A DNA stretch of 64,000 nucleotides from Candidatus Margulisiibacteriota bacterium. Its GTDB lineage: Bacteria > Margulisbacteria > Marinamargulisbacteria > JBFWNS01. A model generated the notes under the pieces. The model made no database searches. It was not told the origin of the DNA and was given only the letters and a program-made list of their open reading frames with translations. Made by a program: the position numbers and the translations under genes. Every line of letters begins with the position of its first letter. The first letter of the stretch is position 1. Below, in pieces: positions 11,189-63,752 of the stretch. The DNA is taken from NCBI GenBank assembly GCA_050250935.1, contig JBFWNS010000004.1:32001-96000 (forward strand). The letters are read 5' to 3'.

Positions 11189-12235
11189 TTAGCTCGAAGG
11201 ACTCTGTAGAAGGGGCTTAAACACTTTGTCATAAATGTACTGAGCGCCAGCCATGGTTAAAGCAAAACTACCGGCTGTCCGAACAACACGCAACCCAAAT
11301 CCTGAATACAAAGCACAGTCGTGATATGATTTTTTAAACAACCCTATAATGGATTTATCCCGATGAAGCAAACTTTGTAATTTCATAACATCCGCTGGTG
11401 TGGTCACCAGGTTGGCAATCGAAATCGCCAAAAAGGTACTCCAAAGCCGATGGCCTGTATGATCATGATCCACACCAAAAGCACTCCGAACTTCTTGGGG
11501 GACCGTCACCCCCGCAAGGTTGGCAATCAAATCCCTCAACACTAAAAACAAAGCCCCTCGTGATTTTGAAAAGTTTTTATAAACCTGCTTCCAATCTTGC
11601 CCATTTTGCTTGGCAATCTGTATTGCAATAGATTTAAACTCCGCAGGCCCCATAATGGCTGAATCAACCAAGGCCGTCCCAAACCCAGACCAAAACCGAA
11701 TGGATCGATCAGAAAGGTCAGTGTGGTTCCCAAGCAAATCTTTAATCAATTGTTGAAATGTAAATTGAACCACCCGCTGAGGAATTGCCCGGTAAAGAAT
11801 GGGTTGTAGTCCAGAGAACAAATTCAGAGGGACCTTCCCGCCATGGGTAACCGTGCGAAATGCAGCTACAAAGCAAACACCGGTTTGTTGCTGCAACGTT
11901 GCAAGCAACGAAAGCGGATAGGTAAAAGCTGTTGCAAAAACAGCAGGTCCAACAGCAGAAATAGGAACAGCGGCTTTAAGGACGACATCGCGACTAACCC
12001 CCAACCAAGGTGTAACCTCAACCATAGGCACGGATCTACGATCAACATCTTTTTTCCCCGCTTGTATTGCATTTCGGGTAACAACAGATTCTGACTGTTT
12101 TCGTTGAGGCAAAGATCTACGGGAGGAGCCCTCCTGCCCGGCTTGGACTGCGTTTCGAGCCCAAAATGCAGCCAAACCCATTCCGCCTGCAGCAACGCCT
12201 AGCCCTACTCCTATTCGAACCGCTCCTGCTGTCAT
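11189..12235 (-). CDS. Mitochondrial carrier (SLC25/MCF)-like protein with N-terminal extension
   Basis: Three ~90-aa repeats with Pro-kink signatures YPLSLLA, GPAEFKS and TPADVMK, plus LFSG/LYSG..R motifs. GAGGAG RBS. Confidence 0.7.
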   Translation of the reverse strand: MTAGAVRIGVGLGVAAGGMGLAAFWARNAVQAGQEGSSRRSLPQRKQSESVVTRNAIQAGKKDVDRRSVPMVEVTPWLGVSRDVVLKAAVPISAVGPAVFATAFTYPLSLLATLQQQTGVCFVAAFRTVTHGGKVPLNLFSGLQPILYRAIPQRVVQFTFQQLIKDLLGNHTDLSDRSIRFWSGFGTALVDSAIMGPAEFKSIAIQIAKQNGQDWKQVYKNFSKSRGALFLVLRDLIANLAGVTVPQEVRSAFGVDHDHTGHRLWSTFLAISIANLVTTPADVMKLQSLLHRDKSIIGLFKKSYHDCALYSGFGLRVVRTAGSFALTMAGAQYIYDKVFKPLLQSPSS

Positions 12236-12262
12236 AACCCCATCTCCTCGCAGTTTTTTGAG

Positions 12263-12290
12263 TTATCGCTAAAAACCAAGATTTATTGCA
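12263..12290 (-). promoter_or_regulatory. Sigma-28-like promoter TGCAA-N15-AGCGATAA
   Basis: Resembles the FliA consensus TAAA-N15-GCCGATAA. The same motif and spacing occur at 17756-17783 and 44437-44464. Confidence 0.5.
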
Positions 12291-12411
12291 AAATAAATGA
12301 ATTAACCTTTATTTTTTTGAAAAATAATTTGAATTTTATTTGATTTTTGTAAAAATACTTAAAATACAACCAGGGTCGCAAAACACCTTCATTTTGGGTA
12401 CACTAAAAGCC

Positions 12412-12807
12412 ATGTCCGTAGACCCCACCTTAAAACAGGCCATTTTGAAAGCGTTTCGCTGCCAAAACAGCGGCAATTGTTGTCGCAGAGAAGGCTATGT
12501 TTATGTCGATGCGCCGACCCAAGCCGCCATGGCCAAAAAACTGAATCTGGATCTTCCAACCTTTTTGGAGAGTTATACCGAAACAAAAAATGGGTGGCGG
12601 TTTATTGCCTCCCCCACCTTTCGAAACACTTGTTTTTTAACCTGTGAAAACACCTGCTCCGTGTACGAAGCCCGCCCCAAAATCTGCCAAACCTATCCCG
12701 ATTGGCCAGAAATTTGGGAAAGCGAAGCCAGTCTGCAAGAAGAAGCCGACTCTTGCCCTGGGCTGAAGATGGCCATCGAACAGGTACGCCAAACCCCAGG
12801 TTTTTGA
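12412..12807 (+). CDS. YkgJ family cysteine-cluster protein
   Basis: CxxxGxCC...C.FL....C.VY..RP.ICxxYP pattern. Confidence 0.85.
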   Translation: MSVDPTLKQAILKAFRCQNSGNCCRREGYVYVDAPTQAAMAKKLNLDLPTFLESYTETKNGWRFIASPTFRNTCFLTCENTCSVYEARPKICQTYPDWPEIWESEASLQEEADSCPGLKMAIEQVRQTPGF

Positions 12808-12824
12808 TATACTGACTCCCCACT

Positions 12825-61477: not shown

Positions 61478-61483
61478 AGGGAT

Positions 61484-62053
61484 ATGGAAAACACCATAGC
61501 CCTTTCCAAAGTTAAGACGTTTTTTCAAAAAAACCATCGGTTACCGTCTTACACCGAAATGCTCGCCCTTTTTGGGGTGAAATCCCGCAACGCCGTTTTT
61601 GAACGCGTTCAGCGCTGGATCAAACAAGGCCAACTCGCCCAGGATGGCCGAAAACTATCTCCTGGCACCAAATTTTTCGAGCTTCCTGTTTTGGGAAGCA
61701 TCAAAGCCGGTCTTCCCACAGAGGCCGGGGTCTACGATGGCGAAACCTATTCCCTGACCCACCTGATGGCCGGAAACCTGGGCGCACTGTATCTGCTCCA
61801 TGTATCCGGCGACAGCATGATTAACGAAGGCATTCGCCCAGGTGATTTGGTGATTCTAGACAAACACCGGGCCGCCAAACAAGGCGACATCGTGGCCGCC
61901 TTAATCGACTACGACTGGACCCTCAAATATTTTAACAAAGGCAAAGAAGGCGTCTTCCTAACCGCTGCCAACCCCAAATATCCACCCCTCCATCCCAAAG
62001 ACAGCCTGGTCATCGGCGGCGTCGTCACCAAGGTGGTGAGGGAGTATTATTGA
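61484..62053 (+). CDS. lexA: LexA family repressor (S24 peptidase)
   Basis: PSYTEM HTH region, LGSIKAGLP cleavage site, VSGDSM and TLK motifs. Confidence 0.88.
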   Translation: MENTIALSKVKTFFQKNHRLPSYTEMLALFGVKSRNAVFERVQRWIKQGQLAQDGRKLSPGTKFFELPVLGSIKAGLPTEAGVYDGETYSLTHLMAGNLGALYLLHVSGDSMINEGIRPGDLVILDKHRAAKQGDIVAALIDYDWTLKYFNKGKEGVFLTAANPKYPPLHPKDSLVIGGVVTKVVREYY

Positions 62054-62060
62054 GAGTTAT

Positions 62061-62606
62061 TTAGACTGTTGAAAGTGCCCCTAAAATATGAAGCGATGGA
62101 CGATCTTGGAGAAGTTGAGCCTTATTTTGTACAGAAGTCCCCTGCAAATCCAACACGGTCAGATTGGGGTGCCTTTTCAAGAAGGCATCCACGCCATCAA
62201 ACGATATCTGACCACACCCTTTTAAGATTACTGTGCTCAAGGAAGGGTTATTGATTTGTGCCAATACGGCATCGGTTAACAATGGACGACTATCATTTGC
62301 ACAAACCCCCACCAAATCCAACCGCTCAAGCCCAGAACTATTGGCCAATGCCACCAAACTTGCCTCTGTTAACCCACGGGAATGAGACAAAAACAGCATA
62401 CTCGGCGTTGCGCTAACAAGGGCGTCTACGAGTTTCGCTTGATCGTCTCCGAATTCAAAAAACTCCAAGTGAAGATGCGCACCGATACTCTGCTTCAACT
62501 TCTCAAGCCATTGGGCTCGATAAACCAAATCCGCAAAATCTGTGGATTGATACCGAAACGTAGCGGGTCTTAAGGGTCTTACCCCAGTACTCAAAAGCTT
62601 GTACAT
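62061..62606 (-). CDS. Leucine-rich repeat protein with presequence-like N-terminus
   Basis: LERLDL, LSTVILKGCGQIS and NLTVLDLQGT repeats (Cys-containing LRR style). Confidence 0.7.
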   Translation of the reverse strand: MYKLLSTGVRPLRPATFRYQSTDFADLVYRAQWLEKLKQSIGAHLHLEFFEFGDDQAKLVDALVSATPSMLFLSHSRGLTEASLVALANSSGLERLDLVGVCANDSRPLLTDAVLAQINNPSLSTVILKGCGQISFDGVDAFLKRHPNLTVLDLQGTSVQNKAQLLQDRPSLHILGALSTV

Positions 62607-62648
62607 GTCCCAACTTTAAAGGATCAAAACAAGTAAAGTCAATTTAAA

Positions 62649-63752
62649 TTATAAATGTTCAAAACTATTCATAACATCTTGAAGAGACGGCCGTTGGGCA
62701 GGATCACTGGCAAACATGGGCGTTAAAATCCCCTCAACAGTTTCAGGAAACCCCGATGGCCAATACGGGTCATATTTAAAGTCATAAGCCCCGCCAACAG
62801 ACTCGCCTGTAAACAGCTCGTAAAGGGTTACCCCAAGGGCCCAAGCATCTTGTTGCGCTGGCGTAAAGCCATGCCCCTCATCCTGAGGGTCGGGAGGAAT
62901 ATAAGACACACTACCAACGGCATAACTTAAATCTGTAACTGGTTCTTGACTGGTCGTTGCAAGCCCTAAATCAGCCAACAACAAAGCTCCATCCGAATCA
63001 ACCATACAATTCTCTGGTTTAATATCCCGGTGATAAATGCCAGCATTATGCATAGCGAGAGTGGCTTTAATCAACTCCACTGCCACCTGCTTCATTTGAT
63101 TAAGTTGGTCTTGACCTGTAGCTTCTCGAAGGTCGGAAGCAAGCCCATCAATCGGGTTATACACCGGTTGAAAAATATAAAGTGTTGGTACACGAGTTTT
63201 ACCTTCATCCTCCGTCACAACCCCCTCTGTCAAACAATAATCCAAACACTGAGCAACACCCTTTGTGCCTTTTAAAGCCATCATCATTTCAATTTCACGA
63301 AGCGAATCCTGAATTTTTTCTTCTCCTTTAATGGACTTCACCACCACCAATGTCCCGTCAGGGGCTAGGGCATATTTAACTTTCCCAAAACCACCTTCTC
63401 CCAACACTGTTTTACCTTGATTGATACCATATTTATCGGCATCTTCCCCGGACACCGTCGTCAGCAAGGTAAATAGTCCGCCATGGAGCTTTCCCCTAAT
63501 CTGGGTGTATTGATCTGAAGATTGTTTTTGAAAACGAGCACTGGGATCCACGTTCCGAATATCGATAGAATGAACCAACACTTGGTCCAACAAGGGAGAG
63601 GCCGATGCCGAGGGTTTCTCCGAATCCGATGGGCTAGGCAAAGCCGCTGGTGATGATTGGTGACCTGCCTTAGACAAAAAAGGTGGTACCACACCAAAAC
63701 CAGACTGACCAGGTGAAAACGAATGAGGACTTGCAAAAGAGTGGATAGCCAT
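62649..63752 (-). CDS. Eukaryote-like Ser/Thr protein kinase with Ser/Pro-rich N-terminus
   Basis: LGEGGFGKV, VVK, HRDIKPEN, DLG, GSVSYIPP and DAWALG motifs. Confidence 0.9.
   Translation of the reverse strand: MAIHSFASPHSFSPGQSGFGVVPPFLSKAGHQSSPAALPSPSDSEKPSASASPLLDQVLVHSIDIRNVDPSARFQKQSSDQYTQIRGKLHGGLFTLLTTVSGEDADKYGINQGKTVLGEGGFGKVKYALAPDGTLVVVKSIKGEEKIQDSLREIEMMMALKGTKGVAQCLDYCLTEGVVTEDEGKTRVPTLYIFQPVYNPIDGLASDLREATGQDQLNQMKQVAVELIKATLAMHNAGIYHRDIKPENCMVDSDGALLLADLGLATTSQEPVTDLSYAVGSVSYIPPDPQDEGHGFTPAQQDAWALGVTLYELFTGESVGGAYDFKYDPYWPSGFPETVEGILTPMFASDPAQRPSLQDVMNSFEHL

Follow-up and report, generated by a model that had tools for sequence, protein, structure and literature searches.

Mitochondrial-carrier homologues and other eukaryote-type genes scattered through a Marinamargulisbacteria genome: a mixed accessory set that may mark life with eukaryotic cells

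The window analysed here is a stretch of 64,000 nucleotides (G000:C4:32001-96000, on a 188-kb contig) from a Margulisbacteria genome of 1.95 Mb in 17 contigs, which is 95.85% complete with a contamination estimate of 0.16%. Its backbone consists of bacterial housekeeping genes, namely nuoF-nuoN, pepF, mutS, queC, smpB, feoB, glycosyltransferases, coaX, mnmA, and hemH, together with a sulfate-assimilation and cysteine cluster, trpE, trpG, heptosyltransferases, and porins. According to the original prediction, made from the sequence alone, nine orphan open reading frames (ORFs) sit singly between these genes and form a suite of eukaryote-like effectors directed at the mitochondria of a host: two proteins resembling SLC25 carriers (car1 and car2), a Pro-rich protein, a degenerate aldehyde dehydrogenase (ALDH), a fusion of an M48 peptidase with an ABC1 domain (M48-ABC1), a helical protein, two Ser/Thr kinases (stk1 and stk2), and a leucine-rich-repeat (LRR) protein. 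All nine exist as open frames at the predicted positions, and the gene content of the window confirms that they stand singly among housekeeping genes. Regarding taxonomic placement, MutS is 53-58% identical to proteins of metagenome-assembled genomes titled Candidatus Marinamargulisbacteria or UBP8_UBA817, with the rest of the 80 retained loci at 48% or less, which makes the genome Marinamargulisbacteria-like. The comparison set comprises 55 species-level genomes of the class, 91 from the rest of the phylum (146 in total), and 14 control genomes. Sequencing runs containing window DNA come from one study labelled landfill metagenome, of which one run may be the source of the assembly, plus a run with a small share from a second study; no RNA run is among those listed.

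Proteins of the carrier family are built of three tandem repeats of ~100 aa, each with a pair of transmembrane helices and a short matrix helix connecting them, and in SLC25 proteins the signature PX[DE]XX[KR] on all three odd-numbered helices forms the matrix salt-bridge network. The genes car1 (11189..12235, minus strand, 348 aa) and car2 (16809..17744, minus strand, 311 aa) are located between nuo, pepF, mutS, and queC. Their predicted SLC25-like identity is confirmed by Pfam Mito_carr (PF00153), with 45.5 bits for car1 (E 6.4e-12, two stretches) and 36.3 bits for car2 (E 4.7e-9) against a gathering cut-off of 22.3, and by hhalign profile alignments that extend over all three repeats in both cases: aa 98-329 of car1 on template positions 22-277 of 299 (98.2%), and aa 77-299 of car2 on positions 19-274 of 299 (97.8%). 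The strict signature motif, however, occurs once per protein instead of on all three odd-numbered helices (PADVMK at 280 in car1, in the third repeat, and PVERVR at 243 in car2). The AlphaFold2 (AF2) model of car1, for which 38 sequences were aligned, eukaryotic carriers among them, reaches a predicted local distance difference test score (pLDDT) of 78.7, and its aa 82-344 form six long and three short helices with pLDDT 85-94. In the Foldseek search with this model all 12 matches listed at E<=1e-3 are UCP1, ADP/ATP carriers, or Tetrahymena complex IV chains, with a template modelling (TM) score of 0.71 for UCP1.

In car1, a hydrophobic and signal-like N-terminus (aa 8-26) is followed by a basic linker and the three-repeat carrier domain (aa ~82-344); the linker (aa 28-79, window 11998-12154) is internally duplicated, with RNAVQAG...RRSLP followed by RNAIQAG...RRSVP. 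The extra N-terminal segments of the original prediction are indeed present in both carriers (~97 and ~76 aa, respectively, the latter with a borderline hydrophobic start) and in both kinases (~330 and ~112 aa). A Shine-Dalgarno-like AGGAG is found 8 nt upstream of the car1 ATG; the promoter and terminator scan around the carriers gave signals no higher than in shuffled controls. Both car1 and another carrier, encoded on contig C3, begin with one or two arginines followed by an uncharged hydrophobic stretch of 18-19 residues. These two pass the crude signal-like test applied here, for which car2 is borderline and which is passed by 20% of the 1604 ORFs called genome-wide.

As for relatives, none of the other 54 class genomes contains a match to car1. 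The word-index search recovered the query alone, which reflects its limited sensitivity, since the exhaustive search of 1.84 billion representatives reports 19 proteins at E<=0.001 and 9 at E<=1e-10, car1 counted in both. With 8 relatives at the stricter threshold car1 is not an orphan; those relatives that carry a source name are called 'hypothetical protein', and they lie on short metagenome contigs. Across seven members of the car1 family 24 columns are invariant, all of them in the carrier domain and including the Asp and Lys of the third repeat and the Glu of the second, while the first-repeat motif is consistently degenerate. The signal-like N-terminus is shared by 3 of the 7 relatives examined, and its sequence is not conserved there. 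The invariant columns indicate purifying selection, so the family is no decaying relic but a small, conserved, non-canonical carrier subfamily. No BLAST match was found between car2 and the other 32 carrier ORFs of the class and its own genome.

In total, the genome has four carrier-like ORFs, three solid and one aligning over two repeats at 92.4%, and all four frames are intact despite extreme divergence. The fourth carrier-like ORF (G000:C4:1989-2960, locus L095) adjoins a 507-aa large serine recombinase at the contig start and may border a mobile element. Within the class, Mito_carr is found in 24 of the 55 genomes, compared with 0 of 91 elsewhere in the phylum and 0 of 14 controls. The carrier ORFs of these 24 genomes are flanked by bacterial genes, e.g., GcpE, GshB, ThiG, RuvA, PriA, and FliI, which together with the neighbours on the contig studied here indicates that the carriers are bacterial genes and not contamination. 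Class carriers are highly diverse, the best preserved (from genome G005) being 33-39% identical to eukaryotic 2-oxodicarboxylate- and S-adenosylmethionine-type carriers. A tree of 20 Margulisbacteria and 28 other carriers is unresolved (four label changes are needed, of which the starred branches force only one), and it places the window carriers on very long end branches (3.8-6.3 vs a median of 1.16); a single carrier clade is not rejected by the approximately unbiased (AU) test (p 0.167). In another class genome (G048:C24:1-5000, locus L107) a carrier stands between a 394-aa ankyrin-repeat protein (E ~1e-52) and a 418-aa LRR protein, a small eukaryote-type cluster.

The distribution of F-box-like domains is similarly restricted, with 8 of 55 class genomes, 0 of 91 elsewhere in the phylum, and 0 of 14 controls. 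Mito_carr co-occurs with F-box in 7 of these 8 genomes (Fisher p=0.016, with related genomes not independent). Few protein types are as specific to eukaryotes as mitochondrial-family carriers and F-box proteins; the genome studied here encodes two proteins with an N-terminal F-box, both above both Pfam cut-offs and neither with a signal-like start. The first (G000:C4:158966-160033, locus L151:1-1068, minus strand, 355 aa), which lies outside the window on the same contig, combines the F-box (28.5 bits for PF12937 and 24.3 bits for PF00646) with three armadillo repeats (E 2.9e-27), and the second (G000:C8, locus L178:1037-2050, minus strand) has 337 aa. The F-box, a domain of Skp1-cullin-F-box (SCF) ligases, is not known to have a partner or target in bacteria. 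The genome also contains three ankyrin ORFs and a 338-aa protein with three Myb/SANT repeats (G000:C3:6511-7527, locus L139:2907-3923, minus strand; E 2.6e-23, low GC content at third codon positions, GC3), a domain that is unusual in bacteria. Ank_2 was matched in 5 of the 14 control genomes. Scans with TLC, U-box, and LRR_6 profiles gave no match in the genome or in any control and are thus uninformative.

The hallmarks of Hanks-type kinases are a glycine-rich loop, a catalytic loop containing Asp and Asn, and a metal-binding motif of the DFG type. Both kinases of the window are confirmed by Pfam Pkinase (PF00069) and by their catalytic motifs. The 626-aa stk1 (57359..59239, minus strand) has its kinase domain at aa 332-620 (E 2.8e-26) with motifs GRGSFG, HQDFKAEN (non-RD type), and DLG, and the 367-aa stk2 (62649..63752, minus strand) at aa 115-362 (E 5.8e-30) with motifs GEGGFG, HRDIKPEN, and DLG, preceded by a Pro/Ser-rich N-terminus; no transmembrane segment is predicted in either of these soluble proteins. 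The best PDB matches of stk1 are PAK4 and MARK (~1e-9), and those of stk2 are mixed, with eukaryotic CIPK23, CDK, and ROCK as well as bacterial PknA and PknE. Both kinases resemble eukaryotic and bacterial ones about equally. They also cannot be called orphans. Kinase-domain relatives of stk1 (25-34% identity) are present in 10 of the 54 other class genomes, none of them aligning to aa 1-228, and it is the N-terminal region (~330 aa) that is unique. Relatives of the stk2 kinase domain occur within the class too, and its only paralogue in the genome (G000:C1:21844-22710) is 34% identical.

The LRR ORF (62061..62606, minus strand, 181 aa) has no significant Pfam match, and its predicted identity is borne out by the fold and by weak sequence matches to RAD7 (E 1e-3) and FBXL2 (E 1.9e-3). 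Its single-sequence AF2 model is a beta-alpha solenoid (pLDDT 72.3), for which Foldseek reports FBXL17 (2.5e-4), followed by the NLRP1 LRR, Skp2, and Rad7, and then by internalins (InlA). The repeats are of the RI/CC (FBXL, NLR) type. The FBXL architecture, in which an F-box precedes cysteine-containing LRRs, is not seen here, because the window ORF has no F-box and the two F-box ORFs of the genome are other genes. Searching the 55 class genomes returned the LRR ORF itself and two borderline matches.

M48-ABC1 (44498..49078, plus strand) is a soluble protein of 1526 aa, in which Pfam confirms both claimed domains (M48 E 1.2e-14, ABC1 E 7.6e-21). It consists of an N-terminal M48 zinc-peptidase segment (HEIGH at aa 112), ~900 aa without a family, and a C-terminal ABC1/UbiB-type kinase-like domain at aa 1007-1284. 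Peptidases of the M48 family (Oma1/HtpX/Ste24 type) have a HEXXH zinc site in a full M48 domain and are usually membrane-embedded; in M48-ABC1 only positions 7-83 of the 186-position profile are matched, and there is no strong transmembrane segment. The ABC1 domain scores 74.8 bits in Pfam (cut-off 22.9) and 101 bits with the NCBIfam UbiB equivalog model (cut-off 487), and the sole PDB sequence match of the protein is COQ8B (E 2.6e-4). The word-index search recovered only the query, and homologues were found in 3 of the 54 other class genomes, namely a fused 1845-aa frame (G006), adjacent frames of 625 and 884 aa (G035), and a weak match (G021), so the protein is not an orphan. Its codon usage is that of the bulk genome, i.e., native.

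Aldehyde dehydrogenases (PF00171) are continuous polypeptides of ~450-500 aa with a catalytic Cys and Glu. In the window, the ALDH-like gene (26300..27994, minus strand) is a 564-codon frame cut by one in-frame TAA at 27098-27100, and the ORF of the original prediction (26300-27067, minus strand) is its 3' part. The 5' ORF covers Aldedh profile positions 20-204 and the 3' ORF positions 249-393, both in the same frame with the single stop between them, so the polypeptide is not continuous; NCBIfam scores are all far below the cut-offs. The stop is also present in contigs of sequencing runs X1 and X2, of which X1 may be the source and is then not independent; a 31-kb contig of X1 spans this stretch, and run X3 gave no contig. 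Hence, the 'degenerate ALDH' does contain an Aldedh domain, but it is a fragment after an in-frame stop and not a stand-alone gene.

The two remaining ORFs have no Pfam or NCBIfam family. The Pro-rich ORF (21310..22128, plus strand, 272 aa) has the lowest GC3 in the window (0.34), a poor atlas model, and no usable protein-atlas match; among the 55 class genomes it matches itself and one borderline sequence containing stops, which makes it, like the LRR ORF, effectively an orphan. The atlas model of the helical ORF (49898..50491, plus strand, 197 aa) aligns to bacterial tetratricopeptide-repeat (TPR) clusters with TM scores of 0.51-0.56, which is a lead only, and the protein is possibly TPR-like. 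A protein of the DUF155 (RMND1/Sif2) family is encoded at window 22182-22973 with native codon usage; this family, absent from the original list, is better known from mitochondria.

According to base composition, the nine ORFs stand apart from their surroundings. Their mean GC3 is 0.414 vs 0.552 for the 48 other ORFs of the window (p=1.4e-5), to be read with the caveat that they were chosen partly for being AT-rich. The claimed AT-rich flanks are weakly supported, with an intergenic GC of 0.34 beside the candidates (n=11) vs 0.43 elsewhere (n=13; Mann-Whitney p=0.03). In the genome as a whole, 162 ORFs out of 1604 have at least 150 aa and GC3<=0.43, and 153 of these, lying outside the window, were scanned. 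At least 14 of the 153 are ribosomal or translation genes, which implies that low GC3 also characterizes highly expressed genes in this genome. Others belong to a myovirus prophage, CBASS (cyclic-oligonucleotide-based antiphage signalling system) and restriction islands, Fic proteins, and toxin-antitoxin genes; the third carrier, the F-box-armadillo protein, the Myb protein, and two further kinases are among them as well, and 73 have no Pfam family at 1e-6. In the codon likelihood comparison the candidates are closer to the prophage and defence pool than to the ribosomal pool, except for M48-ABC1 (bulk-like) and ALDH (neutral). Eight of the nine ORFs have an atypical codon usage.

The coherence of the suite is not borne out. 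There is no paralogy among the nine ORFs, the paralogue of stk2 being the only one outside, and 16 eukaryote-like candidates, which include seven of the nine ORFs, share no N- or C-terminal motif, only low-complexity similarity. Moreover, four of the nine are not eukaryote-like at all, namely the broken ALDH, the two ORFs without a family, and M48-ABC1, which has native codons and an ABC1 domain whose matches to bacterial UbiB models lie far below the cut-offs. The eukaryote-type ORFs are the other five: the SLC25 homologues car1 and car2, the soluble Hanks kinases stk1 and stk2, and the LRR protein of FBXL/NLR type.

No apparatus for injecting proteins into a host was recognized. VirB4 (PF03135) and TrwB_AAD_bind (PF10412) have 0 matches in the 95.85%-complete genome, and neither a type VI secretion system (T6SS) sheath nor an injectisome was found in it. 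The sole FHIPEP gene is flagellar, as it sits with fliM, fliN, fliP, fliR, flhB, and a sigma factor. The sole sheath gene is part of a complete myovirus prophage (G000:C1:36000-64000) with terminase, portal, head, sheath, tape measure, and endolysin; a contractile injection system was considered for it and rejected because of the terminase, portal, major head, tape-measure, and endolysin genes at the locus. The sole secretin, considered as a marker of a type II secretion system or injectisome, was likewise rejected, as its neighbours are polysaccharide export and biosynthesis genes. Across the class, VirB4 is present in 2 of 55 genomes and in 1 of the 24 with carriers. The original prediction had named a genome without a secretion apparatus as a finding that would speak against it, and this is largely the situation here, markers of type IV secretion systems (T4SS), T6SS, and injectisomes all being absent from the searches. 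The mitochondrial direction of the set is without support.

Several other features of the window and the genome are of interest in their own right. The NuoG-like subunit (window 1179-2261) has only 360 aa, with 2Fe-2S and 4Fe-4S domains and without the molybdopterin-like C-terminal part. An ORF for a HepT-like RNase toxin (window 15498-16061, GC 0.37) is preceded by a small ORF (15332-15652), and together (window 15332-16061) they probably form an inserted HepT/MNT toxin-antitoxin pair, with mutS on one side and car2 on the other. The compact sulfur cluster at window 34318-44328 comprises cysN/cysD, two genes of the phosphoadenosine phosphosulfate (PAPS) reductase family, a sulfite reductase fused to TusA (778 aa), a JAB peptidase, a ThiF-type E1, a pyridoxal phosphate (PLP) enzyme of the O-acetylhomoserine sulfhydrylase type, a CysK-type enzyme, and an Rrf2 regulator, and its content suggests cysteine synthesis with a thiocarboxylate carrier (CysO-type). 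Outside the window, a defence island (G000:C2:261484-276298) contains SMODS and SLATT (CBASS-like), an Eco57I-type methylase, and an SNF2/PLD helicase. Three large low-GC3 ORFs of 607, 652, and 917 aa without a Pfam family (G000:C5:109480-116430, locus L093:1481-8431) are located directly upstream of the flagellar export operon fliM-flhA.

Based on these results, the best explanation, held with about even confidence, is that the nine ORFs are mixed accessory genes, comprising the five of eukaryote type, two orphans, one broken ALDH, and one native M48-ABC1 fusion. On the same even footing, this set would mark a Marinamargulisbacterium that lives with eukaryotic cells, with its carriers predicted in its own inner membrane and not in host mitochondria. 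Host association itself is likely, judging by the gene content: carriers that within the phylum are confined to the class, along with F-box, ankyrin, armadillo, and Myb proteins. The host-associated bacterium of the original prediction is thereby supported in outline, through these proteins, their restriction to the class, and the precedent of Candidatus Ruthmannia eludens discussed below. As the F-box has no known bacterial target, some route of protein export into a host probably exists.

The prediction that car1 works in the inner membrane of the bacterium follows from its start and from its conserved subfamily, half of whose members begin in the same signal-like way. An injected carrier must avoid YidC and SecYEG, as argued for LncP of Legionella (PMC3252375), yet car1 has a signal-like segment. 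Under this reading, the eukaryote-type genes would have been acquired horizontally or be fast-evolving, and the F-box proteins, once exported, would target SCF ubiquitin ligases of the host. For car1 and the C3 carrier, the signal-like N-terminal segment would lead to insertion by Sec/YidC in a mitochondria-like orientation, the matrix side toward the cytoplasm, and the carrier would serve to exchange a metabolite between the two sides of the inner membrane. With two of the three salt-bridge motifs lost, such transport may be non-canonical.

A number of points weigh against this interpretation. Ribosomal-protein genes are also low in GC3, so composition alone is no proof of foreign origin. The bacterium has no known host, and landfill metagenome is the label of the runs with window DNA. 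Its flagellar genes and rich biosynthetic equipment (complex I, sulfate assimilation, tryptophan genes) also fit a free-living cell. At 95.85% completeness in 17 contigs, a gap could hide a secretion system, and the carriers could use the same export route as the F-box proteins. The signal-like test relies on a home-made hydropathy rule and not on SignalP, and 0 of 28 carrier ORFs from the other class genomes pass it; the linker that follows the hydrophobic segment of car1 is strongly basic, which speaks against its export. Finally, the carrier tree and the AU test cannot separate one acquisition from several.

A broader version of the preferred reading, which must be regarded as tentative, extends it to the whole class: Marinamargulisbacteria would be cryptic partners or parasites of eukaryotes with long-held, diversified sets of SLC25 and F-box genes and no known injection machine, and the car1 family, as an undescribed non-canonical subfamily located in a bacterial inner membrane, would exchange metabolites with the host cytosol.

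It is rather doubtful that the bacterium is instead free-living and that the nine genes are unrelated accessory or fast-evolving transferred ones, serving bacterial regulation or anti-grazer defence or persisting as neutral, decaying passengers. One of the nine (ALDH) is already a pseudogene, the low-GC3 pool consists mostly of prophage, defence, toxin-antitoxin, and unknown genes, and free-living bacteria have Hanks kinases and ankyrin repeats too, as the Ank_2 matches in the controls illustrate; motility, complete biosynthesis, and the environmental metagenome runs agree with such a life. The distribution of Mito_carr and F-box, which are present in 24 and 8 class genomes, respectively, and in none outside the class or among the controls, is not what this account would lead one to expect, and neutral decay is further contradicted by the four intact carrier frames and the invariant columns of the car1 family. 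Nor does it provide a partner for the F-box proteins.

Unlikely, too, is an arrangement in the manner of LncP, where the carriers, and perhaps M48-ABC1, would be exported into the host by flagellar type III secretion, outer-membrane vesicles, or an undescribed system and insert into or act on its mitochondria. The carrier fold is the same as that of LncP, which gets to the inner membrane of mitochondria by way of Dot/Icm and TIM22 (PMC3252375), and vesicles and tubes are described around Ruthmannia (PMC6784892). The F-box proteins, which make sense only inside a eukaryotic cell, call for some export route in any case, and evolution as fast as that seen in the end branches of the window carriers is frequent in host-interaction proteins. 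However, the genome has no VirB4, coupling protein, T6SS sheath, or injectisome, its FHIPEP is flagellar, and VirB4 is nearly absent from the carrier-bearing class genomes; a strongly hydrophobic N-terminus would be expected to send car1 and the carrier on contig C3 to Sec/YidC. In addition, M48-ABC1 has native codons and is closest to bacterial UbiB models, and the 16 candidates have no export signal in common.

That eukaryotic DNA was mis-joined to bacterial contigs during assembly or binning, as a multi-contig metagenome-type assembly might allow, is highly improbable, given that the genes are intronless, that car1 has a Shine-Dalgarno-like sequence, that the eukaryote-type genes stand singly within long bacterial contigs in an arrangement recurring in 24 genomes, that contamination is very low, and that the 31-kb contig of run X1 (maybe the source and then not independent) spans the ALDH stretch.

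Marinamargulisbacteria are usually regarded as free-living aquatic heterotrophs. In the literature searched, nothing was found that links Margulisbacteria to mitochondrial carriers or F-box proteins, and ankyrin is mentioned only incidentally. What is new here is the lineage and the class-wide pattern of carriers and F-box proteins. In bacteria, these two protein types are on record chiefly from a small number of intracellular pathogens and symbionts, and the strains with reported carrier homologues are few, most of them Chlamydiales, Rickettsiales, or Legionellales (PMC5621508). Concrete genes are now available for testing, namely the carriers for membrane location and substrate, and the F-box proteins for Skp1 binding.

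Among known systems, LncP of Legionella pneumophila is likewise a three-repeat carrier encoded by a bacterium that also has F-box and ankyrin proteins (PMC3252375). According to the same source, however, LncP is an ATP transporter delivered through the Dot/Icm T4SS, with TIM22 as the inserting machinery, whereas the genome studied here has no T4SS marker among its matches, two of its four carriers have a signal-like hydrophobic start, one of three signature motifs is left, and transport is putative. Legionella Lpg1137 is described as extremely divergent from eukaryotic carriers, with degenerate repeats (PMC5621508), and in this respect it is similar to the window carriers, which differ in belonging to Margulisbacteria, in still being above the Pfam cut-off, and in aligning over all three repeats. 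Regarding the F-box-armadillo protein, an N-terminal F-box followed by a repeat domain is also the arrangement of Legionella AnkB (PMC2790608) and of Orientia Ank/F-box proteins; the protein outside the window differs from them in having armadillo and not ankyrin repeats, and its Skp1 binding and secretion are putative. If car1 is indeed an exchanger with the host cytosol, it would do in another way what ATP/ADP translocases do in chlamydiae and rickettsiae.

The closest organism is Candidatus Ruthmannia eludens, described as an intracellular Marinamargulisbacterium of the placozoan Trichoplax H2 that resides in host vacuoles with vesicles around it and fimbria-like tubes connecting (PMC6784892). 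It belongs to the group to which the MutS relatives of the genome studied here point and is also biosynthetically complete, with a small genome of its own; the annotation tables of that description have no 'mitochondrial carrier' entry for the symbiont (PMC6784892), although RAST may have left such genes unnamed. Ruthmannia, as described, shows that members of the Marinamargulisbacteria are able to live inside eukaryotic cells (PMC6784892), and the class-wide pattern reported here suggests that association with eukaryotes is far commoner among them than one described symbiont implies.

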